Of a stretch of 64,000 nt of DNA, positions 9,892-40,810 are shown one piece after another. A program made the translations under genes and the position numbers. The notes under the pieces are model-generated. The model saw nothing but the letters and a program-made list of their open reading frames with translations. It did no database searches and was not told the origin of the DNA. This DNA is from an uncultured Staphylococcaceae bacterium. Its GTDB lineage: Bacteria > Bacillota_I > Bacilli_A > ML615J-28 > CAG-313. The first letter of the stretch is position 1; each line of letters opens with the position of its first letter. The stretch covers positions 90,553-154,552 of the forward strand of contig CAZIQF010000001.1 of the NCBI GenBank assembly GCA_964541525.1, in the 5' to 3' direction.

Positions 9892-11337
9892 TTATTTTTT
9901 GTTTGAATTAACTAAATTAAAGATAGCAATTGCATCAGTAATGTTCTTTTCATAAGCTTCTTGTCCATACTTATCAACTTCTGCTTTATCTTTAGGGCCA
10001 TGAGTTAAACAACCAGCTCCACCAATACAGCCACCAATACATGCCATGCCTTCAACAAAATTAGCATCAAGCATATTTCGACGTTTTTTAAGTAAGGCAA
10101 TTTTACATTCATCAATTCCATTACAAGCAATTGGTTTCACTTCAAAATCTTCAATGTTTTGTTCCTTTAGTGCTTGTCTTACTGCATCAGATAATCCACC
10201 TGATCTAGCAAAAATTCTGCCATAATAAGATGCATTATCTAATACATCTAAATCTAATGTCGTAATATCTAAATCTTTACTATCAAATAATGCTTGTAGT
10301 TCTTCGAAAGTTAATACTTCATCAACATAATCCTTGACCACTTCTTGTCTTATTTCCATCTTTTTAGCTGTACATGGACCAATAAAGATCACTTTACATG
10401 TCGGATCTAATTCTTTTAAATATTTAGCAATTGTCGCCATCGGCGATAAATTATGCGAAATAAGTGGTTCTAAATCAGGAAAATCCTTTCGGACATACGC
10501 TACAAATGCTGGACAACAACTACTAGTTAGAAATCCTTTTTCCGCTAATTCTTGAGATTCACTTTTAGCTACCATATCGGCACCTAAGGCTGCTTCAATT
10601 ACTGTATAAAATCCTAGTTGTTTTAATCCAGTAATAACTTGACCTAATTTTGCATAGGTAAATTGACTAGAAATAGATGGTGCTACCACTGCATAAACTT
10701 TATAATTTTGATTATTATTACTCTTTTTAATTAAATCAATTACATCAACAATATATGATTTATCTGAAATGGCTCCAAATGGACATTGATATACACAGGC
10801 ACCACAAGCAATACATTTATCATTGTTGATTTTGGCTTCTTTATTTTCACCCATCGAAATTGCTTTTACTTTACAAGCTGTTTCACATGGACGTTTATAA
10901 TTGTGAATTGCCGAATATGGACAAACCTTAGCACAGGCACCACATTCTATACATTTAGTTTTATCAATGTGTGCTACGTGATTACTATCAAATGTAATTG
11001 CTCCTCTTGGGCATGCTTCTTCACAGCGATGAGCTAAACATCCACGGCATGAATTAGTTACTTCATAACCACCCATTGGGCATTCATCACAAGCACTTTC
11101 AATTACCTCAATAACATTGGGATTACTGCGATCACCACCCATTGCTAATTTTACTCGATCAGCAATAATTGCTCTTTCTTTGTAAACACAACAACGCATT
11201 GTAGGAATTTTACCTGGAACGATTTTTTTGGCAATATCTAATAAATTTTCTTGTAATGTATCATTCCAAGCTTCACGTGCGACTTCACGTAATACTTTAT
11301 ATTTTATATGTTGGACTTTTGTATCAAATTTTTTCAT
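9892..11337 (-). CDS. [FeFe]-hydrogenase-like protein (HydA homologue, HfsD-like; N-terminal multi-[4Fe-4S] + H-cluster domain)
   Basis: Ferredoxin motifs 'CIECGACAKVCP' and 'CIACGACVYQCP'. H-cluster motifs L1 'TSSCCPAF', L2 'GPCTAKKME', L3 'EGMACIGGCIGGAG'. Confidence 0.75.
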   Translation of the reverse strand: MKKFDTKVQHIKYKVLREVAREAWNDTLQENLLDIAKKIVPGKIPTMRCCVYKERAIIADRVKLAMGGDRSNPNVIEVIESACDECPMGGYEVTNSCRGCLAHRCEEACPRGAITFDSNHVAHIDKTKCIECGACAKVCPYSAIHNYKRPCETACKVKAISMGENKEAKINNDKCIACGACVYQCPFGAISDKSYIVDVIDLIKKSNNNQNYKVYAVVAPSISSQFTYAKLGQVITGLKQLGFYTVIEAALGADMVAKSESQELAEKGFLTSSCCPAFVAYVRKDFPDLEPLISHNLSPMATIAKYLKELDPTCKVIFIGPCTAKKMEIRQEVVKDYVDEVLTFEELQALFDSKDLDITTLDLDVLDNASYYGRIFARSGGLSDAVRQALKEQNIEDFEVKPIACNGIDECKIALLKKRRNMLDANFVEGMACIGGCIGGAGCLTHGPKDKAEVDKYGQEAYEKNITDAIAIFNLVNSNKK

Positions 11338-11348
11338 TTTATCTTTTC

Positions 11349-12521
11349 CTAAAAATAACTAACTTTTATTCTTTTTCCCATTGCTTTTAAGTATTTTGTT
11401 AGTTCTTCAACAAGATTCATTTTAATACTAAAGTTGATTGGCAAATCGGGATTTTGGTGAGCTGGATTAATGGCTCGACCAACATAGAAATTAATATCAG
11501 TTGCTTCTTCAAATAAGATTCTTGATATTAATGATGCTCCATCTTTTTTATAGCACCAGATATTATATAATTTATTTTCTTCCGTATAATCTTTAGCATA
11601 TTCAACAACACGGTTCATGGTAATCACACCTTCAGTTACTAAGTCTACACCTTCAATTTTTGCAATCGGTGGCATATCACTATCTTCAAAAGATAATGTT
11701 GCTTCAACTTTTTTACCTAGGTATTTAGCTGCGATTGATGATGTTGTACCTCCACATACAATATGTTTACCTTCTTTTGCGAAGAATAATGCCATCATTC
11801 TATTTCCATCATTTTTATCTGATGAAGGCCCAAATAAGATATTGACTGGTTCACGCTTTCTAATTTTAATGACACAAGCAGTTGCATCATCTCCTGGTTC
11901 AAAACCATATAGTTTATTACATTCATCAATTAACATTGTTGACATCGTCTTAGCTGTATAACCACCAGCATTAATGCTAACTAAAAACTCAGCGATATCT
12001 TCAATTTTCCATCCGAAATTATAAGCAATCCCAATACCAGCATGAGGACAACCATCACTCATTGTAATGATGGCATCTCCTTCTTCTAAATTGATGATTG
12101 ATTTGATAATTTTTTTGCCACCCATAATCAATTCTTGTTTTGGATAATCATAAATTTCATTATTTCTAATAAATAAAATTTGGGGATTGTCATACTGAAT
12201 TAATTCTGCTTGTTCATTATCTTTAATATGAATAATGGAAAATGTTGAATAGGCAACACCACGAACCGAACAAATTGGTAAAGTTGCAGCAATCGTATCA
12301 ACACATGATTCAAGTGATAATCCTGCAGATAACATTGTTGAAATAATCTTTGATGTTAGTGTTGATAAAATACTTGCTTTTACACCACTACCTAATCCAT
12401 CTGCTAGAACTACAATTGTTGAACCATCTGGCTGTTCAACAACATCAATGTGATCACCACATAGTTCCTCGCCATAATGGTTGACACTTTTAAAGCCAAT
12501 ATCAGCACATAGATTATTCAT
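11349..12521 (-). CDS. PP2C-family Ser/Thr phosphatase (SpoIIE/RsbU-like, HfsC-like)
   Basis: 'VLADGLGSGVKAS', 'ITMSDGCPHAG', 'GDDATACVIKI'. Start overlaps the HydS stop by 8 nt. Confidence 0.8.
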   Translation of the reverse strand: MNNLCADIGFKSVNHYGEELCGDHIDVVEQPDGSTIVVLADGLGSGVKASILSTLTSKIISTMLSAGLSLESCVDTIAATLPICSVRGVAYSTFSIIHIKDNEQAELIQYDNPQILFIRNNEIYDYPKQELIMGGKKIIKSIINLEEGDAIITMSDGCPHAGIGIAYNFGWKIEDIAEFLVSINAGGYTAKTMSTMLIDECNKLYGFEPGDDATACVIKIRKREPVNILFGPSSDKNDGNRMMALFFAKEGKHIVCGGTTSSIAAKYLGKKVEATLSFEDSDMPPIAKIEGVDLVTEGVITMNRVVEYAKDYTEENKLYNIWCYKKDGASLISRILFEEATDINFYVGRAINPAHQNPDLPINFSIKMNLVEELTKYLKAMGKRIKVSYF

Positions 12522-14196
12522 CTTTAATCGACTCCTTTAATTTAGTTAAAGCAATCTTAGTTTCAGCTGCTGTTTCACCTAGTAATGATGCTATTTCTTG
12601 GACGATTCGCATTTGACGTTCAACTACTTTATCAGCAATTTCAACAGTTTGTTTGCTGATTGATTCTTTTTTCGATTTTTCGATTGTCGCTTCAGTTACG
12701 TCACGCATTAAACAAATTAATAAGTGCGAAGTATCATCATATAAGATTGATTGTTCAACATATTTATCATATTCAGCCAAATAGATGCGTTCATTCTTAA
12801 TATTACATTTGGAATCCAAAACTTTAATAAATGGTAATGGATCCAGAATGCGAACAACTTGATCACCTAAAATATCTGATTCAAAACGAATATGTAACAT
12901 TTTTTTAGCTGCTTCATTTATTTGTTGTACTTCTAAACAATCATTTAAAACAATAATTCCATTAGGGGTATTTTTAACAATGCTGTCGGAGAAACTTTCA
13001 GCTTTATCTTTTAAGAATGGTAAACACATCGAAATTTCGGCTTTACCTTGGAAAATTGCTACTGCTTTGGCCCGACATGTACTATAACCACATGAACCAC
13101 AATTTAGTTCATCACTAGGTTTAAATTTCCCCATTTGTTTTAAAATTTGTTCAATTTCATAATTAGTTGGTTTTAATTCATTAACCATAATTGGTGAAAA
13201 TTGTTTTTGGAACAGTTGTGAATTACCACTACTAACAATAAAATCATTAGTACCAGCATATTTCGTTACTAATTGGAAATCACGAATATGCGATGAATGG
13301 TATTTTTCCATAATTGGTCCACCAATACAACTACCAACACATGCCGACATTTCAATAAAGCAATTGCTTACCTTTCCTGCTTCAATATCTTTTAATGTTT
13401 GAATACAGTTTTCTACTCCATCAATCGCTAAATAAGTGTATTTAGGATTATCACAAGCCATCGTTTTTAAGATACCACCAGTTGTTGGAAACAATCTGGC
13501 TTTAGAGTTAATATTATTTTCTTCATTTGGAGTCTTTTCAATGGTAATTTTTTCTTCTTTTAACCAATTGGTTAATTCTTCAAACGTTAAAACGCAATCG
13601 ACAATACCTTCATATCTTGAACCTTCATCTTTTTTTGCTACGCAAGGCCCTACAAAAATCGTTTTGGCATTTGGATATCTTTTTTTGATATCAGTACAAT
13701 GTGCTTGCATTGGTGTCATTACATTTGCTAAATATTTTAATGCATGAGGGAAGTATTTTTGAATAAGCAAATTAACAGAATGACAACAAGAAGAAATTAG
13801 AATATCACTATTTCCTTCTTTTAAAATGCGATTATATTCATTTTTAACAAAAGTTGCACCAATTGCTGTTTCTTCAACATCATATACTCCCAATTTTTGT
13901 AGGGCTGCTCTAATTGATTCAATCCCGATACCATCATAATTTGCAATAAATGATGGTGCTAAACTAACAATTACTTGTTCATTTGACTTTAAAAGTACTT
14001 TTGCCTTTTCGATATCATTAACGATTTCTTTAGCATTTTGCGGACATACTACAAAGCATTGTCCACATAAAATACATTCATTTTCAATAATATGTGCTTG
14101 ATTAGCGGAAAATCGAATTGATTTAACTGGACAATGTCTAATACATTTATAGCAGTTTTTACAATTTGATTTTTTTAATTTTAGAAATGTAGCCAT
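12514..14196 (-). CDS. sensory [FeFe]-hydrogenase (HydS/HfsB-like) with C-terminal PAS domain
   Basis: N-terminal 2x[4Fe-4S] ('CYKCIRHCP', 'CILCGQCFVVCP'). H-domain L1 'SSCCHS', L2 'GPCVAKKDE', L3 'EMSACVGSCIGGP'. Extra 'CGSCGYSTC' cluster. C-terminal PAS-like segment. Confidence 0.75.
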   Translation of the reverse strand: MATFLKLKKSNCKNCYKCIRHCPVKSIRFSANQAHIIENECILCGQCFVVCPQNAKEIVNDIEKAKVLLKSNEQVIVSLAPSFIANYDGIGIESIRAALQKLGVYDVEETAIGATFVKNEYNRILKEGNSDILISSCCHSVNLLIQKYFPHALKYLANVMTPMQAHCTDIKKRYPNAKTIFVGPCVAKKDEGSRYEGIVDCVLTFEELTNWLKEEKITIEKTPNEENNINSKARLFPTTGGILKTMACDNPKYTYLAIDGVENCIQTLKDIEAGKVSNCFIEMSACVGSCIGGPIMEKYHSSHIRDFQLVTKYAGTNDFIVSSGNSQLFQKQFSPIMVNELKPTNYEIEQILKQMGKFKPSDELNCGSCGYSTCRAKAVAIFQGKAEISMCLPFLKDKAESFSDSIVKNTPNGIIVLNDCLEVQQINEAAKKMLHIRFESDILGDQVVRILDPLPFIKVLDSKCNIKNERIYLAEYDKYVEQSILYDDTSHLLICLMRDVTEATIEKSKKESISKQTVEIADKVVERQMRIVQEIASLLGETAAETKIALTKLKESIKDE

Positions 14197-14206
14197 ATTT
14201 AACCTC

Positions 14207-14458
14207 TTATTTTAATTTAGGAGCAATAACTTCCTCCCAAAATTTTTCTATAGTTAATGGGGTAATGCCCGGATAAACGCAATCATCTACGATAATTGTT
14301 ACACCATTACGATTGCATTTACCCGCACAAAAACTTCCTGATAAGATGATTTGATCATCTAATGCTTCTTTTTCAATTCTCTTGTTTAAATATTCAACGA
14401 TTTCTGGAGAATTCTTTAAAAAACATGAACTTCCAATACAGACTTTAATTTCAATCAT
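14207..14458 (-). CDS. thioredoxin-like [2Fe-2S] ferredoxin (HfsA/NuoE-like)
   Basis: 83 aa with a C-x4-C ... C-x3-C pattern ('CIGSSC', 'CAGKC'). Confidence 0.6.
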   Translation of the reverse strand: MIEIKVCIGSSCFLKNSPEIVEYLNKRIEKEALDDQIILSGSFCAGKCNRNGVTIIVDDCVYPGITPLTIEKFWEEVIAPKLK

Positions 14459-14459
14459 A

Positions 14460-14705
14460 TTATTGAAGTTTTGCTAGAACATTTTTTTCAAAGAATTCAT
14501 TTACATTTTCCACATTTACGGAAAAGAATTCTTCTCCAACTTTAACGCAAACACCTTCTTGGCATCTACCCATACAGAATGTTCCACCTAATTCAACTTT
14601 ATCACTTAAATTATTTTTTGAAATCAAATATTGAATTTGTTCTACAACTTGTCTTGAACCTTTAATATGACAAGAACTTCCAATACATACTGTTATTTTA
14701 ATCAT
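14460..14705 (-). CDS. thioredoxin-like [2Fe-2S] ferredoxin (paralogue of 14207..14458)
   Basis: 81 aa with 'CIGSSC' and 'CMGRC'. Tandem duplicate 1 nt upstream of its paralogue. Confidence 0.6.
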   Translation of the reverse strand: MIKITVCIGSSCHIKGSRQVVEQIQYLISKNNLSDKVELGGTFCMGRCQEGVCVKVGEEFFSVNVENVNEFFEKNVLAKLQ

Positions 14706-14725
14706 TTTAATCTAATTCCTTTCTT

Positions 14726-15481
14726 CTATTCGTAATCAACGACATTAGCCCAAGATAATAAGAATTCTCTTTCTTTTTCATTACCTTTAACCGATTGAGA
14801 TACTGCAACAATTGGTAACCATCTTTGAACATCTTTCTTTAAGTGATTACTCTTATCACAATATAAGTTTAAATATTTATCAGCAGTTGAAATATCACCG
14901 GCTAACCAGAATAATAGATATGTTCTAGCTGCATCAGCACATGGATTACCTTGAGTAGCATGTGACCAGTCAATGATATAAGCTTTACCATCTTTACCAA
15001 TAATAATATTTGAAGGGTTAAAGTCACCATGACATACCGATGATCCTTTAGGCATACTTTCAAGTCTTGTATGTAAGTCATATTTTGTTGTTGGTGAAAC
15101 ATTAGCAATACTAATTTTTTGAGTAAATTTATCTTTTAATTTTGTTAATAATGGACTCTTATTGCTTTGAACCATAATTTGTAATTCAACAAATTGTTCT
15201 AAATATTCATCCTTTTGTTCTGGATGTTTTTCCATTAATGCAGCAAGTGTATCACCTTCAATATATTCAGTAATAATTGCCCATTTTCCTTCAACAGTTT
15301 CAATTGATTTAATCTTTGGTACATTGATTGTTAATTCTTCAACACGTGCTTGATTTAAAGCTTCATTTAAAATATCAGCTTTTGAATAGTCTGCATTGAA
15401 TAATTTAATACAATTATCATTATCTTTATAAACAGTTTTAGCGTTTCTAATCGCAATAATTTTTTCAAGATTCATTATCAT
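14726..15481 (-). CDS. APH/choline-kinase-fold phosphotransferase (putative protein kinase)
   Basis: Brenner motif 'HGDFNPSNIII' and 'IIDWSHA' (catalytic and metal-binding Asp). 251 aa. Confidence 0.6.
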   Translation of the reverse strand: MIMNLEKIIAIRNAKTVYKDNDNCIKLFNADYSKADILNEALNQARVEELTINVPKIKSIETVEGKWAIITEYIEGDTLAALMEKHPEQKDEYLEQFVELQIMVQSNKSPLLTKLKDKFTQKISIANVSPTTKYDLHTRLESMPKGSSVCHGDFNPSNIIIGKDGKAYIIDWSHATQGNPCADAARTYLLFWLAGDISTADKYLNLYCDKSNHLKKDVQRWLPIVAVSQSVKGNEKEREFLLSWANVVDYE

Positions 15482-15492
15482 TACCTCGTTTC

Positions 15493-18183
15493 CTATTTAT
15501 TTTTACGATAAAGATTTTTGAAATCATTATCTTCTTCTTTATTAACTACACATTGAGCTGGAACTTCTTTTTCAATAAAAGTTTTTCCATAATAAGCATT
15601 TAAGTACATTTGTTTGATTTCACTCATTAATGGATATCTAGGATTAGCACCTGTACATTGATCATCAAATGCTTGTTCAACCATTTCATCTAATGAACTC
15701 ATGAATACTGCTTCATCTGCTACATAATCTTTGATTGTAGATTTGATTCCAACTTTAGCTTTTAGTTCATCAATCGCTTTAATTAGATTTTCGACTTTTT
15801 CCTCATTTGTTGATCCACCTAAACCTAAATGAGTAGCAATTTCAGCATATCTTGCCATTGTATGAGGATGATCATATTGGGAGAATGTTCCCATCTTATG
15901 TGGAACATCTGATGCATTAAATCTAATTACTTCATCAATCATTAAAGCATTAGCAACACCATGAGGAATATGATGGAATGCACCTAATTTATGAGCCATT
16001 GAGTGACATACACCTAAGAAGGCATTAGCGAAAGCCATACCTGCCATAGTAGCTGCATTAGCCATTTTTTCTCTTGCAACAGGATTATTTTGACCATCTT
16101 CATAAGCAACTGGTAACCATTCAAAAATAATTTTTAAAGCACCTAAAGCTAAACTATCTGTATATTCAGTTGCAAGCATTGAAGCATATGCTTCGACTGC
16201 ATGAGTTACAGCATCAATACCAGATGCAGCAGTTAAACCTCTAGGAGCAGTCATATGGAAATCTGCATCAACAATGGCCATATTAGGTAATAATTCATAA
16301 TCAGCAAGTGGATATTTGATACCAGTAGTTTCATCAGTAATTACTGCAAATGGAGTAACTTCTGAACCTGTACCAGCTGATGTTGGAATTGCAATAAAGT
16401 ATGCTTTTTCACCCATCTTAGGGAAAGTATAGATACGTTTTCTAATATCCATGAAACGCATAGCCATATCCATAAAGTCTACTTCTGGATGTTCATATAA
16501 TACCCACATAATCTTAGCAGCATCCATTGCTGAACCACCACCTAATGCAATAATACAATCAGGTTTGAATGAAGCCATTTGTTCAGCACCTTTTTTAGCA
16601 CAAGCTAGTGTTGGATCTGGTTCAACATCATAGAACACAGCACTTTCGATATTTAATTCTTTTAATTTGTTAATAATTGGCGTAGCATGTCCGTGTGTAT
16701 ATAAGAAATTATCTGTAACAATAAATGCACGTTTTTTATTCATCACAGTCTTTAATTCATTTAAGGCAACAGGCATACAACCTTTCTTTAAGTAAACTTT
16801 TTCTGGAGCTCTAAACCAAAGCATATTTTCCCTTCTTTCTGCAACTGTTTTAATATTGATTAAGTGTTTTACACCAACATTTTCTGATACACTATTTCCA
16901 CCCCAAGAACCACAACCAAGAGTTAGTGATGGTGCAAGTTTAAAGTTGTAAATATCACCGATACCACCTTGTGATGATGGTGTGTTTACTAAAATACGAC
17001 ATGTTTTCATGCGAGCTGCAAATTCATTAAGTTTATCTTGTTCAGTTAATTCATTAATATAAATTGATGAAGTATGTCCATATCCACCATCAGCAATTAA
17101 TTGTTCAGCTTTACTAAATGCATCTTTAATTGATTTAGCTTTATACATTGCAAGTACTGGTGATAATTTTTCATGAGCAAATTCTTCACTTAATTCAACT
17201 GAAGAAACTTCACCAATTAATACTTTTGTACCTTCTGGAACACTAACGCCAGCGATAGCAGCAATTTTAGCTGCAGGTTGACCAACAATTTTAGCGTTTA
17301 ATGAACCATTAATAATAATTGTTTTTCTTACTTTATTTAATTCATTATCATTTAGGAAGTAACAACCACGAGCAGCAAATTCATATTTAACTGCATCGTA
17401 AACATTTTTATGAACAATTACTGATTGTTCAGATGCACAAATCATCCCATTATCAAAAGTTTTTGAATGAATAATTGAGTTTACTGCAAGAATAATATCA
17501 GCAGTTTCATCGATAATTGCAGGAGTATTACCAGCACCTACACCAATTGCAGGTTTACCTGAAGAGTAAGCAGCTTTTACCATCCCTGGGCCACCAGTTG
17601 CAAGAATAATATCGGCTTCTTTCATTACTGTATTAGTAAGTTCTAGACTAGGAACATCAATCCAACCAATGATTCCTTCGGGAGCACCAGCTTTAACAGC
17701 AGCTTCTAAAACAATTTTAGCAGCAGCAATTGTTGAATTCTTAGCACGTGGATGTGGACTAATGATGATTGCATTTCTTGTTTTTAATGCAAGTAAAGCT
17801 TTAAAGATCGCAGTTGAAGTTGGATTTGTAGTAGGAATAACGGCAGCAACAACACCGATTGGTTCAGCAATTTTCTTAATTCCATAAGCTTTATCTTCTT
17901 CAATAACACCACAAGTGATAGTATCACGGTATTGATTATAAATATATTCAGATGCATAGTGATTTTTAATAACTTTATCTTCGACAACACCCATTCCTGT
18001 TTCTTCAACAGCAAGTTTTGCAAGCGAGATACGAGCATTATTTGCAGCAAGTGAAGCTGCTAAAAAGATTTTGTCTACTTCTTCTTGAGTATAAGTAGCA
18101 TATTTACATTGAGCTTTTCTTAAATTTTCTAATTTTTTTGATAAACTTTCTAAGCTATCTACAATATCATAATTTTTGTTCAT
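15493..18183 (-). CDS. adhE: bifunctional acetaldehyde-CoA / alcohol dehydrogenase
   Basis: ~895 aa with ALDH and Fe-ADH halves. Preferred start ATG at 18183 ('MNKNYD') with AGGAGA 7 nt upstream. The ORF track has an N-terminal over-extension to 18201. Confidence 0.9.
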   Translation of the reverse strand: MNKNYDIVDSLESLSKKLENLRKAQCKYATYTQEEVDKIFLAASLAANNARISLAKLAVEETGMGVVEDKVIKNHYASEYIYNQYRDTITCGVIEEDKAYGIKKIAEPIGVVAAVIPTTNPTSTAIFKALLALKTRNAIIISPHPRAKNSTIAAAKIVLEAAVKAGAPEGIIGWIDVPSLELTNTVMKEADIILATGGPGMVKAAYSSGKPAIGVGAGNTPAIIDETADIILAVNSIIHSKTFDNGMICASEQSVIVHKNVYDAVKYEFAARGCYFLNDNELNKVRKTIIINGSLNAKIVGQPAAKIAAIAGVSVPEGTKVLIGEVSSVELSEEFAHEKLSPVLAMYKAKSIKDAFSKAEQLIADGGYGHTSSIYINELTEQDKLNEFAARMKTCRILVNTPSSQGGIGDIYNFKLAPSLTLGCGSWGGNSVSENVGVKHLINIKTVAERRENMLWFRAPEKVYLKKGCMPVALNELKTVMNKKRAFIVTDNFLYTHGHATPIINKLKELNIESAVFYDVEPDPTLACAKKGAEQMASFKPDCIIALGGGSAMDAAKIMWVLYEHPEVDFMDMAMRFMDIRKRIYTFPKMGEKAYFIAIPTSAGTGSEVTPFAVITDETTGIKYPLADYELLPNMAIVDADFHMTAPRGLTAASGIDAVTHAVEAYASMLATEYTDSLALGALKIIFEWLPVAYEDGQNNPVAREKMANAATMAGMAFANAFLGVCHSMAHKLGAFHHIPHGVANALMIDEVIRFNASDVPHKMGTFSQYDHPHTMARYAEIATHLGLGGSTNEEKVENLIKAIDELKAKVGIKSTIKDYVADEAVFMSSLDEMVEQAFDDQCTGANPRYPLMSEIKQMYLNAYYGKTFIEKEVPAQCVVNKEEDNDFKNLYRKNK

Positions 18184-18197
18184 AATATTTCTCCTAT

Positions 18198-18818
18198 TCA
18201 ATTATTATTTATTTCGATTGATAAAATTGCTAATGATGCCGCAATATCAATATTTCTTACTTTGACATCATCATTAACAATTAATTTCTGATTTGTAAAA
18301 TTTAAAATACCTTTAATCCCAACTGCTGTAACTTGATCACATACGCTTTGAGCAACATCAGCTGGAACTGCTAAAATAGCAATTTTAACTTTACTAAAAT
18401 TTGTTAATTCATCAATTGATAAAATTGGATGATTATTGATTGACTTACCAATTAATGATTCATCATTATCAAACAATCCCACTATGCTAAACCTGTTTTC
18501 TTCAAATCCATCATACATTGCGAGGGCTTTACCAATTTTACCAGCACCGATAATAACTACATCGTTTGTCCCAGATTGACCAATAAGTGTATCGATTTTA
18601 GTCTTTAAATCCGTTACATAATACCCAATTTTAGGTTTACCATTACCAGCAATTAAGTTAAGATCTTTTCTTACCTGCACTTCACCTAATCCTAAGTCCA
18701 TTGCTAATTTGGTCGATGAGATCATTTCAATCTGCTTTTTCTCTAAACATTTCAAATAATTGGCATAAAGCGGTATTCTTTCAATGACTGATTTAGGAAT
18801 ATTTTTGTTACTATTCAT
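18198..18818 (-). CDS. rex: redox-sensing transcriptional repressor Rex
   Basis: Winged-helix N-terminus and Rossmann 'VVIIGAGKIGKAL'. The ORF track start at 18836 is GTG; the ATG at 18818 with AGGAAG RBS is preferred. Stop lies 14 nt before the adhE start. Confidence 0.85.
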   Translation of the reverse strand: MNSNKNIPKSVIERIPLYANYLKCLEKKQIEMISSTKLAMDLGLGEVQVRKDLNLIAGNGKPKIGYYVTDLKTKIDTLIGQSGTNDVVIIGAGKIGKALAMYDGFEENRFSIVGLFDNDESLIGKSINNHPILSIDELTNFSKVKIAILAVPADVAQSVCDQVTAVGIKGILNFTNQKLIVNDDVKVRNIDIAASLAILSIEINNN

Positions 18819-18881
18819 TACGCATCTTCCTTTCACACTAATAGTATATCATAATAAAATATAAATGTAAAATATAAAAAA

Positions 18882-32213: not shown

Positions 32214-33536
32214 TTATTCTTTCTTAATTTCACCTGCTTTAGTTAAAGCAATCTTTGTAATAACTGGTCCAATTAATTCATAAACTAAAGTTGCGCATAA
32301 AACAACAGCCGTAATTGTTCCAGCAAGACCATATAAATAATTCGCACCAGTAAATAAATGATTTTCTTCTAAAGCTGCATCAGCGATTGCTCTAAAAGTA
32401 TTTGAAGCACTACGAGCCATACCGATTGCAACACCAGCTTGTGGCAATAAAGTTAAACCTAAATATTTAGTAACATTTTTATCTTTCTTTTCTAGCGAAC
32501 AGCCAAAGCGAGCACCAAAGTATTTACCAAGTGATCTGGCAATTAAATAAACAACGCATAAGGCAACAACTGGTAATGTGATAACACTAAAATCTAGTTC
32601 CGCACCTGATAGAATAAAGAATAGCATAAATAATGCTGGAGTCCAACGATCAATTCCATCAAGAATCACAATTGCATCTTTTCTCAAATTACAGAAAACT
32701 GCTCCTAACATCATACAAGTAAGTAACGATGATAATTCTAAATCAAACCACGTTCCAAATAGGTCACATAGTGCCACAGCTAAAAAGACTGCAGCAAGCA
32801 TGCACATTAAACGATTTGCCCGTGATTTAAACGCATTCATCGCATAAGTTAAAATTAAACCAATAATACCACCAATTAATAGGGATAAAACTATTTCTAA
32901 TAGTGGAAATACTAAGATATCAACAACACTAATATTACCACCACCTAGTCCTGCTTGCTGTTTAGCAAAAACTTGAGCAATCGAAAATGAGATTGAGAAT
33001 AAAATTAAACCTACTGCATCATCAAATGCAACAACTGGTAATAATGTATCAGTAACTGGTCCTTTAGCTTTATATTGTTTAATGACCATTAATGTTGCTG
33101 CTGGAGCTGTAGCAGTTGCAACCGCACCTAAAGTCAAGATTAATGGCAATTGTTCAGCTAAATTATTTGTACATAAGCACACAATAATTAACGCAATATC
33201 AACAAATGCTAATGCTGCAAATGCTTGTAACATTGTGATGGTAACAATACCTTTACCAACTTTCTTGATACTACTTAACTTAAATTCGCTTCCGATGGAA
33301 AAAGCGATAAAACCTAATGCTAAATCAACAATGATACCAAAAGCCGATACCATATCTTTTGATAATACACCAGTTAAATCATCATTAAATAAACTGAAAA
33401 GATAAGGGCCAAGTAAAATTCCCACAATTAAATAACCAGTTACATTGGGTAATTTTACTAATTTGATTAGTCGATTAGAAATTAATCCGGCAATTAAAGC
33501 AATACTAATTCCTAATAAAATGCTTCCAGTATCCAT
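32214..33536 (-). CDS. cation:proton antiporter (CPA family)
   Basis: 440 aa with ~12 TM segments and an Na+/H+-exchanger-like N-terminus. Confidence 0.7.
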   Translation of the reverse strand: MDTGSILLGISIALIAGLISNRLIKLVKLPNVTGYLIVGILLGPYLFSLFNDDLTGVLSKDMVSAFGIIVDLALGFIAFSIGSEFKLSSIKKVGKGIVTITMLQAFAALAFVDIALIIVCLCTNNLAEQLPLILTLGAVATATAPAATLMVIKQYKAKGPVTDTLLPVVAFDDAVGLILFSISFSIAQVFAKQQAGLGGGNISVVDILVFPLLEIVLSLLIGGIIGLILTYAMNAFKSRANRLMCMLAAVFLAVALCDLFGTWFDLELSSLLTCMMLGAVFCNLRKDAIVILDGIDRWTPALFMLFFILSGAELDFSVITLPVVALCVVYLIARSLGKYFGARFGCSLEKKDKNVTKYLGLTLLPQAGVAIGMARSASNTFRAIADAALEENHLFTGANYLYGLAGTITAVVLCATLVYELIGPVITKIALTKAGEIKKE

Positions 33537-33877
33537 TATTCATCAAGTCCTTCCAAGAAGGCAATCGGAAGTGAATACATGAAACCTTTTTCTTTAATTC
33601 CAGATAATGCTTGATTAGTAATTTTAGCTAATTCTTTTACTTCTTCATCTTTTTTTACTACTACTAAAATCATTGGTCTAGATATTTCTACATCTTGATC
33701 AATCATTCGATTAATTCCGCCAAAATATGGTTCTGGTTCAATAGAATCCATTAATGCGTGATGAATACTCTTAGTTGATAAGACAGTCCCACGATAATTA
33801 TTAACAGAATAAGTTTTTAACAAAGGAAGTACATATTGGTCCTCTGTTAATACAACAATAAATAATTGCATAAGCAA
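33536..33877 (-). CDS. small cytoplasmic protein co-transcribed with antiporter (P-II-like/DUF190 candidate)
   Basis: ~110 aa. Stop overlaps the antiporter start. Confidence 0.35.
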   Translation of the reverse strand: MLMQLFIVVLTEDQYVLPLLKTYSVNNYRGTVLSTKSIHHALMDSIEPEPYFGGINRMIDQDVEISRPMILVVVKKDEEVKELAKITNQALSGIKEKGFMYSLPIAFLEGLDE

Positions 33878-36248: not shown

Positions 36249-37094
36249 TTATGTTTGTTTTATCTTAGTAATTTCACTAAATTCAGTTAGATTTAAAATA
36301 TCAATAATATTTTCATTTGCATTAATAATCGATAGTGGCTTATTATTACATTTCTTTTTTAGTTTTAGAATTACTCTTAATCCAGCACTAGAAATGTAAT
36401 TCAACGCTTTGGCGTTAATAATGATACCATTATCTAAAATCTTTGCATTTGTAGCATGGTTTTCAAATTCATTAGCATTGTTTATATCAATACTTCCGAC
36501 TAAATTGATATAGGTAGTATTATTTTCATATGTGATATAGATTATATTTTTAGATTCCTTTTTTGCAAATACAGTTTCTACTTCTTGCTTAAGTTCTTGA
36601 TACATCTTTAAGTGGCTGAAACGACTAAACACTTGGATATACTCGTTGTATAACCATTCTTGTTTTTCTTTTCCGCGTTTAAACATACTCCAAATACTAT
36701 CTCCATCTCGGTTCATTGATTCATGAATATCAATGATGTTTGACAATTTATCGGCTAAGACTAACATTGCACAAGCATCATCACAATTTTCAAGAGCTTT
36801 TAATGTAGCATTTTTGCGTTCTTCCCAGGATAATGATTTATCTTCTGTATCAAACATTACTAAGCGATAAACTTCTTCACCAAATTCTTGTTTAATGGTT
36901 TCCGGTGTTACATTAGCATCTTCGATAGTGTCATGCAAAAAACCAGCTGCTACTAGTTCATCACTAGCTCCATTTTCAAGTAATTTTAAGCCGACTGATA
37001 CTGGATGCAAAATATAGGGAAGACCACCCTTTCTTACATCTTTTTGATGAGCAATACCAGCGAATTTTAAAGCTTTTATTTTTAAATCATTCAT
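36249..37094 (-). CDS. HD-domain (p)ppGpp-hydrolase-like (Rel/SpoT hydrolase, SAH-type) fused to C-terminal STAS domain
   Basis: 'ILHPVSV', 'AGFLHDTIED', 'VLADKLSNI' (HD hydrolase motifs). C-terminus 'LNYISSAGLRVILKL' (STAS phospho-serine motif). Confidence 0.7.
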   Translation of the reverse strand: MNDLKIKALKFAGIAHQKDVRKGGLPYILHPVSVGLKLLENGASDELVAAGFLHDTIEDANVTPETIKQEFGEEVYRLVMFDTEDKSLSWEERKNATLKALENCDDACAMLVLADKLSNIIDIHESMNRDGDSIWSMFKRGKEKQEWLYNEYIQVFSRFSHLKMYQELKQEVETVFAKKESKNIIYITYENNTTYINLVGSIDINNANEFENHATNAKILDNGIIINAKALNYISSAGLRVILKLKKKCNNKPLSIINANENIIDILNLTEFSEITKIKQT

Positions 37095-37097
37095 AAC

Positions 37098-38273
37098 TTA
37101 AAATGATAATTTATCAACCTTTGCAAGATTGTTTTCTAATAATTTAGTGTAGTATTCAATAAATTGTTTACCTTCTAAAGTATCTTCAGTATGATATACA
37201 TACACACGACGAAGAATTCGTACTGCTGATAAGATTTCAACTTTTCTTACTGCATCTTCAATTAATTCTTGATTATTATCAAAATAATCATTTAAGAATA
37301 AATGCCACATTTTAACAGTTGTATCATAAGATAAGCCATAAAAATCTAATGCATTTTGATGATTAAACATTGAATAACCGACAAAACTACAATAAACACT
37401 AACCAAATCGAAAATTGGATGACCAACTGATACTGTATCCATATCAATTAAAATTGGTTCATTATCACCAAACATAACATTATTTGTATGATAATCACCA
37501 TGGATTAATATTGGTAAAACTGGAATTTCTGTGATTAATTGTTCTAGTTTATCCCATAGATGATCACTAATTTTGCCTTTAATCACATTTAACCAACCAA
37601 TGCCCACTTTTTTGATTGATGGGAATTCATCTAAAGTAGCCTTTGTTTCATGGATTTTTTCTAAGAAATTAGAAAAAATATGCATATAATATTCTAATTT
37701 TTCTGGTTCTGCGATAATGCATTTAGTAATTGATTTAGCATTTAGTAATTCAACAACAGTTGCATAATATTCTCCCACTTTAACAATATCATAGGGAATA
37801 GCTGAGTTAATTCCTTTCATTAAGACTTTTCTACAAAGTTCACGTTCATTTTTAATCTCTTCAAGTGGCGAATGATTATAGAATACTTTAACAATTGTTT
37901 CAGCATCGTAACGATAAATTCTCCCCTTAGCTCCTTGTGCAATAACTTCACAACCATCTAAACTTAATTTTCTAAATGCTTTTTCAACTGTTAATAATTC
38001 AACAAACCCTGTCATATCAAAAATATTATAGATTTCATTAGAAACATTAATCACCTTTAATTCATCGACTGTCTTGCGTAATCTTAATAAAATTCGAAGA
38101 CCAGCACTTGAAATATATTCTAAAGCTTCAGCATCGATAATAAAAGCTTGTTCTAATGAATCATTAATAAGCTTTTTAATCTTTTCTTCGGCTTCATTAG
38201 CATTAGAAGCATCAATTCTTCCAATTAGTTCAATTACTAATAAATCATTTTCAATTCTACTTTTAATTTCCAT
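37098..38273 (-). CDS. N-terminal STAS domain fused to APH/choline-kinase-fold phosphotransferase
   Basis: 'LEYISSAGLRILLRL' STAS motif. 'IHGDYHTNNVMF' and 'LIDMDTV' kinase motifs. Confidence 0.7.
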   Translation of the reverse strand: MEIKSRIENDLLVIELIGRIDASNANEAEEKIKKLINDSLEQAFIIDAEALEYISSAGLRILLRLRKTVDELKVINVSNEIYNIFDMTGFVELLTVEKAFRKLSLDGCEVIAQGAKGRIYRYDAETIVKVFYNHSPLEEIKNERELCRKVLMKGINSAIPYDIVKVGEYYATVVELLNAKSITKCIIAEPEKLEYYMHIFSNFLEKIHETKATLDEFPSIKKVGIGWLNVIKGKISDHLWDKLEQLITEIPVLPILIHGDYHTNNVMFGDNEPILIDMDTVSVGHPIFDLVSVYCSFVGYSMFNHQNALDFYGLSYDTTVKMWHLFLNDYFDNNQELIEDAVRKVEILSAVRILRRVYVYHTEDTLEGKQFIEYYTKLLENNLAKVDKLSF

Positions 38274-38288: not shown

Positions 38289-39941
38289 TTATTTTCGCTT
38301 GATTGCAAGCATTGTAATATCATCAAATTGTGGTGTTTCATTACAAAACTCTTCAATTGATTTTTTCATATTTTTAATTAAATCAGTTGTAGAAAGATTT
38401 GAATCTTTGTTTACTACAGCTAATATTCCTTCAATTCCAAATTGAATATTTTGATTATTGATTGCTTCAGTTACACCATCTGTATAAATCAATAAAGTTT
38501 CTCCTTTTTCTAATACAAATTCATAATTTTTATATTTCATATTTGGGAAGCATCCAATTGCTAATCCATGTTTAGTTTGATAGACTTTTGCAGTTCCATC
38601 ATTTGCTTTAATTACTGGATCTTCATGTCCCGCATTCGCACAAATAACCTTACCCGTTGATAATTCTATGATGGCAAACCAAACCGTAACAAACATATCT
38701 TCTTGGTTGTTACTTGAAATCTTATTATTTAGTGCTTCTAAAATTTTAGCCGGATCATTGATTAACGTTGCAAGATTACTTGTTAAGATTTTAGTAACCA
38801 TCATAAATAATGCGGCTGGAACCCCTTTACCTGATACATCACCAATAGTTAAAGCTAAATGATCATCATCAAGCAAGTAAAAATCGAAGTAATCGCCACC
38901 TACTTCTTTAGCAGGATGCATTAAACCAAATAAGTCAATATCTTCTCGTTCGGGAAATGGCGGAAAGACACTTGGAATCATTGTCATTTGGATTTTTGTT
39001 GCAAGATTTAATTCAGTTGCAATCCTTTCTCGTTCTGCAGTTAATTTTTCTAATAAATTAGTATTATTAACAACATCATTTTCTAAATGTTGTAGTGATC
39101 GCCAGATTGAATTAAGTTCTGTAATGCTACTAACTGATTTAACATTATCTTCAAGAACAATATTACTACTTGCGAAGCGTTTAGATTCCGTAATAATCTT
39201 TTTAACTGGATTAGAGAATTGTTTAATACAATACAAAACGCCAAAAAAGACTAAAATCGCTAGATTAGCAAAGGTTGTTAAGGTATTTTTTCTTAGAAAA
39301 CTTGATAACAAGCTATTTAATTCATTCATTTCTCTTTGAACACAAGTTATTGCAACAACATTTCCATTTGAATCAAAAACCGGCGATAGTGCCGTAATAT
39401 GTGGAGGTTTACCATTTAAATCTTTAGTTCTAGTTACTACTCCGTTTTCAATCTTTTTTTCATATAAATCTTTATAAATACTAATGTATTCATCATTACT
39501 TTCACGATGATATCCTAGTTCCCATGGCGTATAACCATAAGGGTTATCATCAATAACTGTATTGAATACCGAATAGAAATTATCATAGTTTGCTTCTTGA
39601 TCAACAACAATAACATATAGAAGCGTTATTTTTTGTTTTTGGCAAACATGATTTAAATTATCTAATATTTCTAAATATTCACTATCTTGTTTATAATAAT
39701 CAACATCAGCCAAATAATCATCAAGCATATCACCATCAATAAAATCATTAGCAGTATCAGCGGCATTAATTGCATATTCATAATATGTTTTTTTCATCGC
39801 TTCATTAATTTCAACATAACCAATCACACATGCTACTGCATTAGATAAAAGTAAAATAATGACAATAAAGAAAATAAAGCGAAAGTTAATACTATTAATT
39901 AATTTCCTGAACTTTTTCATACTACCTATTCTCGCTTTCAC
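38289..39941 (-). CDS. membrane-anchored sensor PP2C phosphatase (RsbU/SpoIIE-like) with extracytoplasmic domain
   Basis: TM1, ~190-aa periplasmic/extracellular region, TM2, then 'GGDYFDFY', 'IGDVSGKGVPAA', 'YTDGVTEA'. Overlaps the upstream kinase gene by 20 nt. Confidence 0.8.
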   Translation of the reverse strand: MKARIGSMKKFRKLINSINFRFIFFIVIILLLSNAVACVIGYVEINEAMKKTYYEYAINAADTANDFIDGDMLDDYLADVDYYKQDSEYLEILDNLNHVCQKQKITLLYVIVVDQEANYDNFYSVFNTVIDDNPYGYTPWELGYHRESNDEYISIYKDLYEKKIENGVVTRTKDLNGKPPHITALSPVFDSNGNVVAITCVQREMNELNSLLSSFLRKNTLTTFANLAILVFFGVLYCIKQFSNPVKKIITESKRFASSNIVLEDNVKSVSSITELNSIWRSLQHLENDVVNNTNLLEKLTAERERIATELNLATKIQMTMIPSVFPPFPEREDIDLFGLMHPAKEVGGDYFDFYLLDDDHLALTIGDVSGKGVPAALFMMVTKILTSNLATLINDPAKILEALNNKISSNNQEDMFVTVWFAIIELSTGKVICANAGHEDPVIKANDGTAKVYQTKHGLAIGCFPNMKYKNYEFVLEKGETLLIYTDGVTEAINNQNIQFGIEGILAVVNKDSNLSTTDLIKNMKKSIEEFCNETPQFDDITMLAIKRK

Positions 39942-40356
39942 CTAAATATTTGATAATGGTTAATTTGTTTTGTTGATTATCATATTCATATTCAATATTA
40001 TCCATTAAATTTTTTACCATATAAATCCCCAATCCACCGATTTGGCGATCAGCAAGGGGAATATTAAAGTTGGGATCTTCTTTTTCGAGTGGGTTATATT
40101 GGATTCCTTGATCGATAAATATAATTTGAATATAGTGTGGATCAATATTTGTATTAACTTCAATGATGGCATCTCCTCCATCTACAGGATATGCATATTT
40201 AGCAATGTTAACAAAGATTTCTTCTACTGCTTCTTCAATGGCAAATCTTTGTTTAAATGTACAATTTGTATCATCTAAGATATTATCAATAAATGAAATT
40301 ACATCATTGAGATTATCAATTTTAGCGTCTATTTGTAATTTTTTCATGCTAATCAT
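39922..40356 (-). CDS. anti-sigma-factor-type Ser kinase (RsbW/SpoIIAB-like GHKL ATPase)
   Basis: N-box 'EEAVEEIFVNIAKYA'. G-box 'GGLGIYMVKNL'. 144 aa. Confidence 0.8.
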   Translation of the reverse strand: MISMKKLQIDAKIDNLNDVISFIDNILDDTNCTFKQRFAIEEAVEEIFVNIAKYAYPVDGGDAIIEVNTNIDPHYIQIIFIDQGIQYNPLEKEDPNFNIPLADRQIGGLGIYMVKNLMDNIEYEYDNQQNKLTIIKYLGESENR

Positions 40357-40361
40357 CCTTT

Positions 40362-40664
40362 TTATTTTATCTTTACAATATCAATAAAGCCAGTTAAATT
40401 AAATACATCAATTATTTCATCTGATGCATTAACAATCTCAAAATTGATATTTTTTGCTTTAGTTTGCTTAACAAATAACAAAATAACTCTTAATCCAGCA
40501 CTTGAAATATATTGTAAAGAAGAAAAATCAAAGATTAAGGAACTAATCTTTTCATTAAGAATTTCTCCCATTTTCGTTTCAAGTTCAATATATGATTGAG
40601 AATCAAGTCTTCCCAATAATAAAACACGTAAACTATCATTTTCTTTTTTTAATTCAATAATCAT
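40362..40664 (-). CDS. STAS-domain anti-sigma-factor antagonist (RsbV/SpoIIAA-like)
   Basis: 'LQYISSAGLRVILLF'. 100 aa. Confidence 0.8.
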   Translation of the reverse strand: MIIELKKENDSLRVLLLGRLDSQSYIELETKMGEILNEKISSLIFDFSSLQYISSAGLRVILLFVKQTKAKNINFEIVNASDEIIDVFNLTGFIDIVKIK

Positions 40665-40698: not shown

Positions 40699-40727
40699 AT
40701 TATACCAATTTTTTCTTATTTTTTCAA
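40699..40727 (-). promoter_or_regulatory. sigma-A-type promoter for the partner-switching operon
   Basis: Minus strand TTGAAA-17 nt-TATAAT with TGg extended -10. Lies ~35 nt upstream of the rsbV-like start. Confidence 0.4.
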
Positions 40728-40810
40728 TAAAAGCAATAAAAACATCTATTGATAATTCTCATCGCTAAGTCACTAGAATAAATCAAATTAAGTTTTATTT
40801 TTAATTCCAT
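40724..40810 (-). CDS. small ORF (28 aa, MELKIKLNLIYSSDLAMRIINRCFYCFY)
   Basis: GGAGG 10 nt upstream of ATG. Ends in 'CFYCFY'. Overlaps the predicted -35 element. Confidence 0.25.
   Translation of the reverse strand: MELKIKLNLIYSSDLAMRIINRCFYCFY

Follow-up and report, generated by a model that had tools for sequence, protein, structure and literature searches.

We analysed a 64,000-nucleotide stretch of DNA from an uncultured Staphylococcaceae bacterium (GenBank assembly GCA_964541525.1, contig CAZIQF010000001.1, positions 90,553 to 154,552; hereafter the window), with a focus on a gene in which a STAS domain is fused to a kinase of the aminoglycoside phosphotransferase (APH) fold. This gene, STAS-APH (37098..38273, minus strand), occupies the fourth place in an apparent operon of five minus-strand genes that lie close together, either overlapping or separated by gaps of 3 to 15 nt. 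The first gene (40362..40664, minus strand) encodes a single-domain STAS protein of 100 aa and of the anti-sigma-antagonist type (Pfam STAS, E = 2.4e-15; TIGR00377, 59.0 bits against a cut-off of 53.45). It is followed by a gene for an RsbW/SpoIIAB-like GHKL serine kinase of 141-144 aa (39922..40356, minus strand; HATPase_c_2, E = 1.1e-20, with RsbW and SpoIIAB matches below cut-off) and by a gene for a membrane-anchored sensor phosphatase of the PP2C type (38289..39941, minus strand; 543-550 aa), in which the SpoIIE/PP2C domain occupies residues 358-549 (Pfam SpoIIE, E = 3.7e-51). A hydropathy scan of the phosphatase placed transmembrane-like segments at residues 13-46 and 220-239, on either side of a predicted extracytoplasmic domain of about 170 aa. 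STAS-APH comes next, after a gap of 15 nt, and the fifth gene, HD_4-STAS (36249..37094, minus strand; HD_4, E = 4.2e-13; STAS, E = 2.2e-11), starts 3 nt after its stop codon. A preliminary description of this DNA had located STAS-APH between the sensor PP2C and an HD-STAS gene, which is the arrangement we find; the canonical GHKL kinase gene and the free STAS gene that head the operon do not figure in it.

The sequence YISSAGLR is common to all three STAS domains of the operon, beginning at residue 52 in the free STAS protein. In an alignment of the GHKL domain of the window with 56 from neighbours of related genes (57 in total), the ATP-binding residues of the kinase (E46, N50, D82, G84, and G107-G110, covering the N-box, G1, and G2) are conserved. 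A candidate sigma-70-like promoter lies at 40699..40727 on the minus strand, about 35 nt 5' of the first operon gene, and consists of TTGAAA, a 17-nt spacer with a TG, and TATAAT. It matches the consensus at 11 of 12 positions and is the top site of the scan; the region as a whole has no excess of such sites over shuffled sequence. Rfam at the gathering threshold found nothing across 33-46 kb of the window, which argues against a riboswitch ahead of the operon. Scans with Pfam and NCBIfam identified no sigma factor among the operon genes.

STAS-APH begins with an ATG, 7 nt downstream of a strong AAAGGAG Shine-Dalgarno sequence, and encodes 391 aa plus a stop codon. The STAS domain covers residues 1-98 (37980..38273), and the kinase domain, which has the choline/aminoglycoside-kinase (CAK) form of the APH fold, covers residues 109-391 (37101..37949). 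Both assignments pass their Pfam cut-offs, STAS (PF01740) with 50.8 bits against 22.6 (residues 5-98, E = 1.6e-13) and APH (PF01636) with 52.3 bits against 23.2 (residues 109-294, E = 8.4e-14), and the fusion of an N-terminal STAS to an APH/choline-kinase-fold domain proposed in the preliminary description is thereby confirmed. So are the intact Brenner motif and the metal-binding Asp that it had read from the sequence: HGDYHTNN starts at residue 258 (37479..37502), and the Asp is D277 (37443..37445) in LIDMD (IDMD, residues 276-279). Together with the G-loop, K129 (37887..37889), E143, and the pattern H258-x-D260-x4-N265, these residues complete the catalytic set of the kinase.

The STAS half also passes the NCBIfam model for anti-sigma antagonists (TIGR00377, 60.4 bits against 53.45), and the SpoIIAA-type structures 4hyl and 1th8 were matched by the family profile at 1e-12 to 1e-15. 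As judged from these matches, it is of the SpoIIAA/RsbV type, the same kind as the free STAS protein of the operon. The motif YISSAGLRILL starts at residue 53, and Ser56 (38106..38108) is the putative phospho-acceptor because the SpoIIAA serine with which it aligns (PDB chain 1th8_B) is an Ala in chain 1tid_B. An AlphaFold2 model built on a 126-sequence alignment is confident throughout (mean pLDDT 94.8, pTM 0.84) and shows an alpha/beta fold for STAS, followed by the two lobes of the kinase, of which the C-lobe ends in a subdomain of five helices. STAS and kinase are joined by about 10 residues that are themselves conserved (K98, R101, S104, G107, and C108), which suggests that this linker may couple STAS rigidly to the kinase N-lobe.

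The best NCBIfam match of the kinase half is TIGR02172, an uncharacterised family described as a Fibrobacter paralogous family (model positions 4-226 of 226, E = 1e-28). The score of 100.7 bits lies below the curated cut-off of 228.2, so by sequence the kinase is a subfamily related to TIGR02172 and not a member of it. The preliminary description had allowed that the C-terminal domain might align better to a small-molecule kinase with a known, unrelated substrate. This was not the case: models of known function reached 16-30 bits against cut-offs of 172-550, namely CotS (30.2/172.7), CotI (26.4/550), PRK11768 for SrkA/YihE (25.3/194), CcrZ (17.9/400), MTRK (16.3/275), and NF033059 for APH(3')-I (19.8/400).

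Structural comparison leads to the same group of kinases. Foldseek searches of the PDB with the AlphaFold2 model returned APH(3')-Ia, APH(2'')-IIa/Ib/IVa, FN3K, MTR kinase, CcrZ, and capreomycin phosphotransferase (E of about 1e-9 to 1e-7, 12-17% identity, target-normalised TM-score 0.4-0.6), with a Foldseek probability of 1.00 for the APH structures. The family profile gave weak matches of the kinase half to PDB sequences, headed by hygromycin-B kinase (1.6e-6) and YihE (7e-5) and followed by APH(3')-Ia, CcrZ, choline kinase, and YtaA; EcKL is also among the family matches, besides APH, FN3K, MTR kinase, and CcrZ. By its fold, its Brenner motif, and its helical C-terminal subdomain, and because it has no activation segment, the kinase falls into the choline/aminoglycoside-kinase group, most characterised members of which phosphorylate sugar-type hydroxyls. 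STAS-APH shares the fold and all catalytic motifs with CAK kinases (APH(3'), APH(2''), hygromycin-B kinase, FN3K, MTR kinase, and CcrZ) and with TIGR02172. We know of none among these families that carries an N-terminal STAS domain.

The fusion is both common and conserved. A search of about 5.8 billion proteins found at least 8,000 that match STAS-APH, and each of the best 120 matches is 390-392 aa long and carries both STAS and APH; with so many homologues and such uniform length and domain content, the architecture is far beyond chance. When the kinase alone (residues 100-391) was searched against 1.84 billion cluster representatives, 1,878 clusters matched at E ≤ 1e-3 and 308 at E ≤ 1e-30. 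Among the 150 closest representatives of 50%-identity clusters, 127 carry STAS directly N-terminal to the kinase (hmmsearch with a STAS profile). The remaining 23 have no detectable STAS, and 18 of them are shorter than 330 aa, some resembling truncated gene calls. Kinases without STAS thus do not dominate among close relatives; their dominance was the other outcome that, according to the preliminary description, would have counted against it.

Residues of both halves are near-invariant within the family. Across 126 sequences, S56 is present in 99%, K129, H258, N265, and G284 in 100%, D260, D277, and G114 in 99%, and E143 in 96%, and G58-L59-R60 is likewise near-invariant. The kinase is therefore expected from its sequence to be catalytically active, and the STAS serine appears to be strongly constrained. 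The SSA(G) motif around this serine occurs in 72 of 75 STAS-APH proteins, 14 of 14 fusions that also include GHKL, 44 of 47 free STAS proteins, and 6 of 6 HD_4-STAS proteins.

Relatives in genomes include proteins from metagenome-assembled genomes (MAGs) of Anaeroplasma (72% identity), Coprobacillus (73%), and Ruminococcaceae (42%), as well as from Treponema (35-37%), and a clade at 49-50% identity is annotated in MAGs of Treponemataceae and Spirochaetaceae. The window protein is nearer to these spirochaete proteins than to the Ruminococcaceae protein, and the pattern of identities hints at transfer between gut lineages. NCBI names the 392-aa proteins of Treponemataceae and Spirochaetaceae MAGs (cluster P0102) "anti-sigma factor antagonist", ignoring a kinase domain of 290 aa, and the name at JGI is "uncharacterized protein (TIGR02172 family)".

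To place the operon in context, we assembled 89 related loci, consisting of genome matches and 80 loci from rumen and gut metagenomes; the latter are biased to relatives of 40-50% identity, the scan having been built on a closer alignment. ORFs (open reading frames) were called in all 89 loci, and STAS, GHKL, PP2C, HD_4, and Na/H-exchanger domains were mapped with jackhmmer profiles seeded from the window. Removing loci whose STAS-APH was >90% identical left 74 non-redundant loci, 22 of which have at least 3 kb of flanking sequence on each side. Partner-switch parts are present in 20 of these 22 loci; GHKL is found in 17, PP2C in 17, and HD_4 in 14. A C-terminal fusion of GHKL to STAS-APH occurs in 14 of the 89 loci (13 of the 74 non-redundant ones), and a Pfam scan of the 10 longest STAS-APH proteins identified an N-terminal counterpart, HATPase_c_2-STAS-APH (P0125). 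The same scan revealed rarer fusions of STAS-APH to GH3, to a PolyA_pol-type nucleotidyltransferase, to HD-CE, and to a Na/H exchanger (P0204). No sigma factor was found among the recurrent neighbour clusters scanned with Pfam and NCBIfam across the 89 loci, and no cluster besides those named here and below occurs in more than a few of them.

Several other features of these loci deserve mention. Phosphatase and STAS kinase form one protein in many relatives (L008, L009, L013, L017, L028, and others), as a membrane sensor-PP2C-GHKL protein of 700-1030 aa, and in L008 and L009 Pfam identifies its membrane sensor as 5TM-5TMR_LYT. An SDF symporter is embedded in the cassette in eight loci. In L008, L009, L012, and L017, an SDF symporter with an N-terminal extension of about 160 aa lies between the PP2C-GHKL gene and the HD_4 and STAS-APH genes. 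A guanine-deaminase-like amidohydrolase is encoded directly downstream of STAS-APH in four Treponemataceae-type loci (L008, L015, L016, and L017; TIGR02967, E = 1e-94, just below cut-off). In L009, the cassette is directly preceded by a gene for a YjbM-like small alarmone synthetase; as this is 1 of 89 loci, we did not count it as a conserved partner.

Another recurrent partner is the HD_4 hydrolase. In the window protein, the HD_4 domain spans approximately residues 1-170 and exceeds the PF13328 cut-off (49.7 bits against 27.2), and the C-terminal STAS domain spans residues 186-281, with Ser236 at 36387..36389. Matches in the PDB are Lmo0812 (4yf1, 3e-29), the small alarmone hydrolases (SAHs) 7qoe and 7qoc, MESH1, and the N-terminal domains of Rel; the range for Lmo0812 and the SAH structures is 1e-22 to 3e-29. 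The RelA/SpoT-homologue (RSH) hydrolase motifs are intact, namely HP, LHDTIED (LHDxxED), and ADKLSN (ADKLxN). Residues R21, H30, H54, D55, E58, D59, D115, and N119 show zero substitutions in 40 aligned domains (that of the window and 39 neighbours), 2-3 rows being gapped at some positions. On this sequence evidence, the HD_4 domain is predicted to be a canonical hydrolase of the RelA/SpoT type that resembles the small alarmone hydrolases. It shares the fold and the full RSH hydrolase motif set with SAHs such as Mesh1, Lmo0812, and other bacterial members, and differs from them in being fused to STAS (or, in relatives, to PP2C or STAS-APH) and in being encoded inside a partner-switch operon. 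The presence of the phospho-acceptor motif at Ser236 implies that an alarmone-type hydrolase would itself be under partner-switch control.

HD_4 is encoded directly upstream of STAS-APH in 21 of the 58 non-redundant loci with enough upstream sequence. The HD_4-STAS arrangement is found in the window, L003, L004, L023, and L027; a PP2C-HD_4 protein, confirmed by Pfam, adjoins STAS-APH in the Treponema loci L006 and L007; one protein (P0174) joins HD_4, STAS, and APH in a single polypeptide; and HD_4 alone also occurs in relatives. A second type of phosphoesterase gene, encoding a PHP domain, is present in 12 of the 89 loci (L012, L013, L034, L038, L057, L063, L067, L078, L079, L084, L085, and L089). 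Nine of the 12 have it as the next gene after STAS-APH or STAS-APH-GHKL, and a STAS-APH-PHP fusion exists (P0127). The PHP protein belongs to the TrpH/Cv1693/RNase AM group, with PDB matches 9etk, 3e0f, 7ug9, and 2yb1 and with NCBIfam matches to 3',5'-nucleoside bisphosphate phosphatase (1.3e-40) and RNase RNM (3.5e-40), both below cut-off. HD_4 occurs in 0 of the 12 PHP loci and in 41 of the 77 others (Fisher p = 3e-4, kinship between loci ignored), so the two look like alternative partners of STAS-APH. Both RSH-type HD_4 enzymes (Rel/SpoT and Mesh1) and TrpH-like PHP enzymes (Cv1693 and RNase AM) remove a 3'- (or 2'-) phosphate or pyrophosphate from nucleotides.

The gene content of the operon resembles that of the Bacillus partner switches. 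Like SpoIIAA-SpoIIAB-SpoIIE and RsbV-RsbW-RsbU/P, it encodes a STAS protein with a phospho-acceptor serine, a GHKL serine kinase, and a PP2C phosphatase together. Unlike them, it contains no sigma factor gene, and none recurs in the related loci; moreover, two of the three STAS domains in the window are fused to enzymes, one to the APH-fold kinase and the other to the HD_4 hydrolase. A conventional role as sigma antagonist would thus find no sigma factor within the operon or among the recurrent neighbours in the 89 loci, although one encoded elsewhere in the genome is possible.

Partner switches that act on outputs other than sigma factors have precedents. In Anabaena PCC 7120, the PP2C-type phosphatase HenR and the kinase Alr3423 set the phosphorylation state of the STAS domain of All4160, a STAS-glycosyltransferase, and this state controls the enzyme without a sigma factor (bioRxiv 10.64898/2026.04.08.717354). 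STAS-APH is likewise a STAS-enzyme fusion with a cognate PP2C and STAS kinase, and by analogy its enzyme may be under phospho-control too. It differs in that the enzyme is an APH-fold kinase and not a glycosyltransferase, and in that the regulators are encoded in the same operon along with a second STAS-tethered enzyme (HD_4), which would be co-regulated. In CapK/CapS and VapKSC, the STAS domain that a GHKL kinase phosphorylates has a wHTH repressor or the VapC toxin fused or bound to it, and thus an output other than a sigma factor; these systems have no PP2C, sense single-stranded DNA, and act in an immune context (EMBO J 2026, PMC13373217). The STAS-APH operon, in contrast, includes a membrane sensor PP2C, has enzymatic outputs, and shows no defence-system signature. 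Because GHKL or other kinases, with or without PP2C, control STAS-tethered non-sigma outputs in All4160 and CapS/VapS, a partner switch without a sigma factor is plausible here.

We propose that STAS-APH is the effector arm of such a sigma-less switch. That it is a tethered kinase under partner-switch control we consider probable, and we hold with slightly greater assurance that the substrate of its APH domain is something other than STAS. The fuller proposal, in which the substrate class is left open between a metabolite, which we prefer, and a protein, has in our estimate an even chance of being correct. Under this proposal, the sensor PP2C would dephosphorylate S56 as well as the matching serine in each of the operon's other two STAS domains, and the GHKL kinase would re-phosphorylate them. 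The phosphorylation state of STAS would then turn the tethered kinase on or off, either directly through the rigid linker from STAS to the N-lobe or, alternatively, through docking of GHKL, for which the free STAS protein would compete. Once active, the APH domain would phosphorylate a hydroxyl on its non-STAS substrate.

As for the identity of this substrate, a small molecule has somewhat less than an even chance, and a nucleotide or ribose-phosphate in particular is a tentative suggestion, clearly less likely again. In the version that we prefer, the kinase would be the writer of a phosphate on a ribose- or nucleotide-type metabolite, and HD_4, or PHP in other lineages, would be its eraser. 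This would be chemically coherent, since HD_4 and PHP enzymes act on nucleotide phosphates and kinases of the CAK fold on sugar hydroxyls. The guanine-deaminase-like neighbour points weakly the same way. The most specific form, in which STAS-APH makes a signal consisting of a 2'- or 3'-phosphorylated nucleotide (or RNA 3' end) that HD_4 or PHP erases, with both enzymes controlled by the partner switch through their own STAS domains, is unlikely.

A number of observations weigh against the proposal or against parts of it. GHKL is absent nearby in 5 of the 22 non-redundant well-flanked loci, and the test of HD_4/PHP exclusivity treats related loci as independent. No solved or characterised kinase is close to STAS-APH (12-17% identity), so that its substrate would be deduced from genomic context alone. 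The diversity of fusion partners (GH3, nucleotidyltransferase, exchanger, HD-CE, and PHP) fits a general protein kinase at least as well as a metabolite kinase. A second APH-fold kinase in the window, which lacks STAS, takes the place that a protein Ser/Thr kinase would be expected to have in its cluster. It is also possible that HD_4 serves as an input sensor and not as an eraser, for which RsbQ/RsbP offers an analogy, and the PP2C-HD_4 fusion fits either role.

This second kinase (14726..15481, minus strand; 249-251 aa) belongs to a conserved cluster at 9892..18836 on the minus strand that is also present in L090, L091, and L092. The cluster encodes Rex (18198..18836), AdhE (15493..18201), the kinase, two small 2Fe-2S thioredoxin-like proteins (14207..14705), a HydS-like sensory [FeFe]-hydrogenase with a putative role in H2 sensing (12514..14196), a PP2C (11349..12521), and a HydA-like hydrogenase (9892..11337), all on the minus strand. 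A passage of PMC5707799 that cites Zheng et al. 2014 has a Ser/Thr protein kinase at the kinase position of the proposed H2-sensing HydS pathway. In the window, that slot is occupied by an APH-fold kinase, which is neither a GHKL nor a Hanks kinase. Like STAS-APH, this protein has the APH fold (Pfam APH, E = 5.8e-15), TIGR02172 as its best NCBIfam match (E = 5.5e-16), and a PP2C in its conserved module. It differs in lacking STAS, in being shorter, in having RIO/Bud32-like features, and in belonging to a cluster without GHKL or STAS; the relationship between the two kinases is distant (phmmer E = 5.7e-6).

The HydS cluster bears on the strongest competing explanation, in which the APH domain is a protein Ser/Thr kinase that targets the associated effectors (HD_4, PHP, transporter, and others) or further proteins, and thereby forms a relay downstream of the switch. 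Fusion or adjacency of STAS-APH to so many unrelated effectors, among them HD_4, PHP, GH3, nucleotidyltransferase, Na/H exchanger, and HD-CE, is what a relay would predict. Protein kinases exist within the fold, as seen in the YihE/SrkA match (7e-5) and the appearance of CotS and YtaA, and the STAS-less kinase is found beside PP2C in a Rex-AdhE-kinase-HydS-PP2C-HydA cluster without GHKL. Against a relay stands the distant relationship of the two APH kinases. The C-terminal subdomain of STAS-APH is long and helical, as in small-molecule CAK kinases, and the protein lacks an activation segment. Unlike the HydS-cluster kinase, it has no RIO, Bud32, or Pkinase match. The HD_4 protein of the window, moreover, bears its own STAS domain, suggesting direct control by GHKL and PP2C and not control via the APH domain. 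We therefore regard a protein relay as unlikely, and our preference for the metabolite version over it is only slight, resting on the distant relationship of the two kinases and the lack of RIO/Bud32-like features in STAS-APH.

A further explanation is that the APH domain itself phosphorylates STAS, either its own S56 in cis or neighbouring STAS domains in trans, and so replaces or supplements GHKL. The preliminary description had implied such a stand-in role by noting that this kinase fold is not that of the usual GHKL partner-switch kinase. The remark about the fold stands; the implied substitution is not supported, because the operon has its own GHKL kinase (39922..40356), as do 17 of the 22 well-flanked loci, and 14 loci carry a GHKL fusion. 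Loci in which PP2C lies beside STAS-APH and no GHKL is found within about 7 kb (L006 and L007 from Treponema, and L034) favour this role, as does the pairing of an APH-fold kinase with PP2C in the HydS cluster. Conversely, GHKL with conserved ATP-binding residues is present in the operon and in most loci, and the 14 STAS-APH-GHKL loci (13 non-redundant), as well as the HATPase_c_2-STAS-APH protein, would have two kinases for each serine. Genomes that appear to lack GHKL may encode it elsewhere. With GHKL present, and often in the same polypeptide, replacement of GHKL by APH is unlikely in the window and in most loci, and we consider this explanation improbable overall; it is possible in the minority of loci that have PP2C and no nearby GHKL (L006, L007, and L034).

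On one side, the operon borders an ABC exporter pair and a MarR-type regulator, and on the other an acyltransferase. The ABC transporter gene is separated from the promoter of the operon by 310 nt, and in this gap lies a 28-codon ORF (MELKIKLNLIYSSDLAMRIINRCFYCFY; approximately 40724..40810, minus strand) that is preceded by a strong GGAGG ribosome-binding site and ends in a stop codon overlapping the promoter's -35 hexamer. A gene for a CPA2-type Na+/H+ exchanger (32214..33536, minus strand) is found three genes beyond the downstream end of the operon, and its start overlaps a 113-aa ORF (33536..33877, minus strand) without a family match. An exchanger gene is also found beside the cassette in L028.

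These exchangers, together with the Na_H_Exchanger-STAS-APH fusion (P0204) and the SDF symporter in eight loci, would fit a protein that regulates ion or solute transport through a ligand- or transporter-associated STAS domain, as in SulP/SLC26 or MlaB, and not through a phospho-switch. We consider this very unlikely: the STAS domain, which exceeds the TIGR00377 cut-off, is a SpoIIAA/RsbV-type domain whose phospho-acceptor serine is 99% conserved, and GHKL and PP2C neighbours are the rule whereas transporters occur in a minority of loci.

The least probable explanation is that STAS-APH is an antibiotic-resistance kinase (for an aminoglycoside, macrolide, or peptide), a toxin kinase with an SAH antitoxin, or part of a defence system: its top structural matches are APH(3')-Ia, APH(2''), and capreomycin phosphotransferase, its top profile match is hygromycin-B kinase, and HD_4 SAHs serve as antitoxins of toxic alarmone synthetases, but it scores 19.8 bits against 400 for APH(3')-I and shares 12-17% identity with solved APH enzymes, the signalling operon that contains it is chromosomal and conserved across phyla, and a membrane sensor phosphatase with a GHKL/STAS set is not a feature of toxin-antitoxin systems. 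We rejected a resistance kinase on these scores, which are far under cut-off, and on genomic context, and a defence system because PADLOC returned no match for any of the five operon proteins.

Control of a STAS-tethered enzyme directly by a partner switch is already known. New here are an APH-fold kinase as the tethered enzyme, the constant pairing of this kinase with a hydrolase of the RSH type, and triple fusions of STAS, APH, and GHKL. Our literature search, which was incomplete, found nothing on TIGR02172, no report linking STAS to the aminoglycoside phosphotransferase fold or to small-molecule kinases, and none tying partner switching or STAS to small alarmone hydrolases, including the HD_4-STAS fusion.

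Partner switching is the textbook means of sigma factor control, and direct regulation of an enzyme by it has been shown only recently. STAS-APH would add a large and widespread case, with thousands of sequences from gut and rumen Firmicutes, Mollicutes-like bacteria, and spirochaetes, in which two enzymes, a kinase of the antibiotic/choline-kinase fold and a (p)ppGpp-type hydrolase, are wired directly into the switch. It would also correct database names, as "anti-sigma factor antagonist" hides a kinase, and it offers a testable function for the orphan clade of TIGR02172-like kinases. If the proposal is true, an extracytoplasmic sensor phosphatase would be linked to alarmone or nucleotide metabolism without transcription. 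If the kinase and the hydrolase are indeed a writer and eraser pair, they would point to an unrecognised phosphorylated nucleotide signal, and thus to an alarmone-like pathway built on a kinase fold never before linked to nucleotide signalling.

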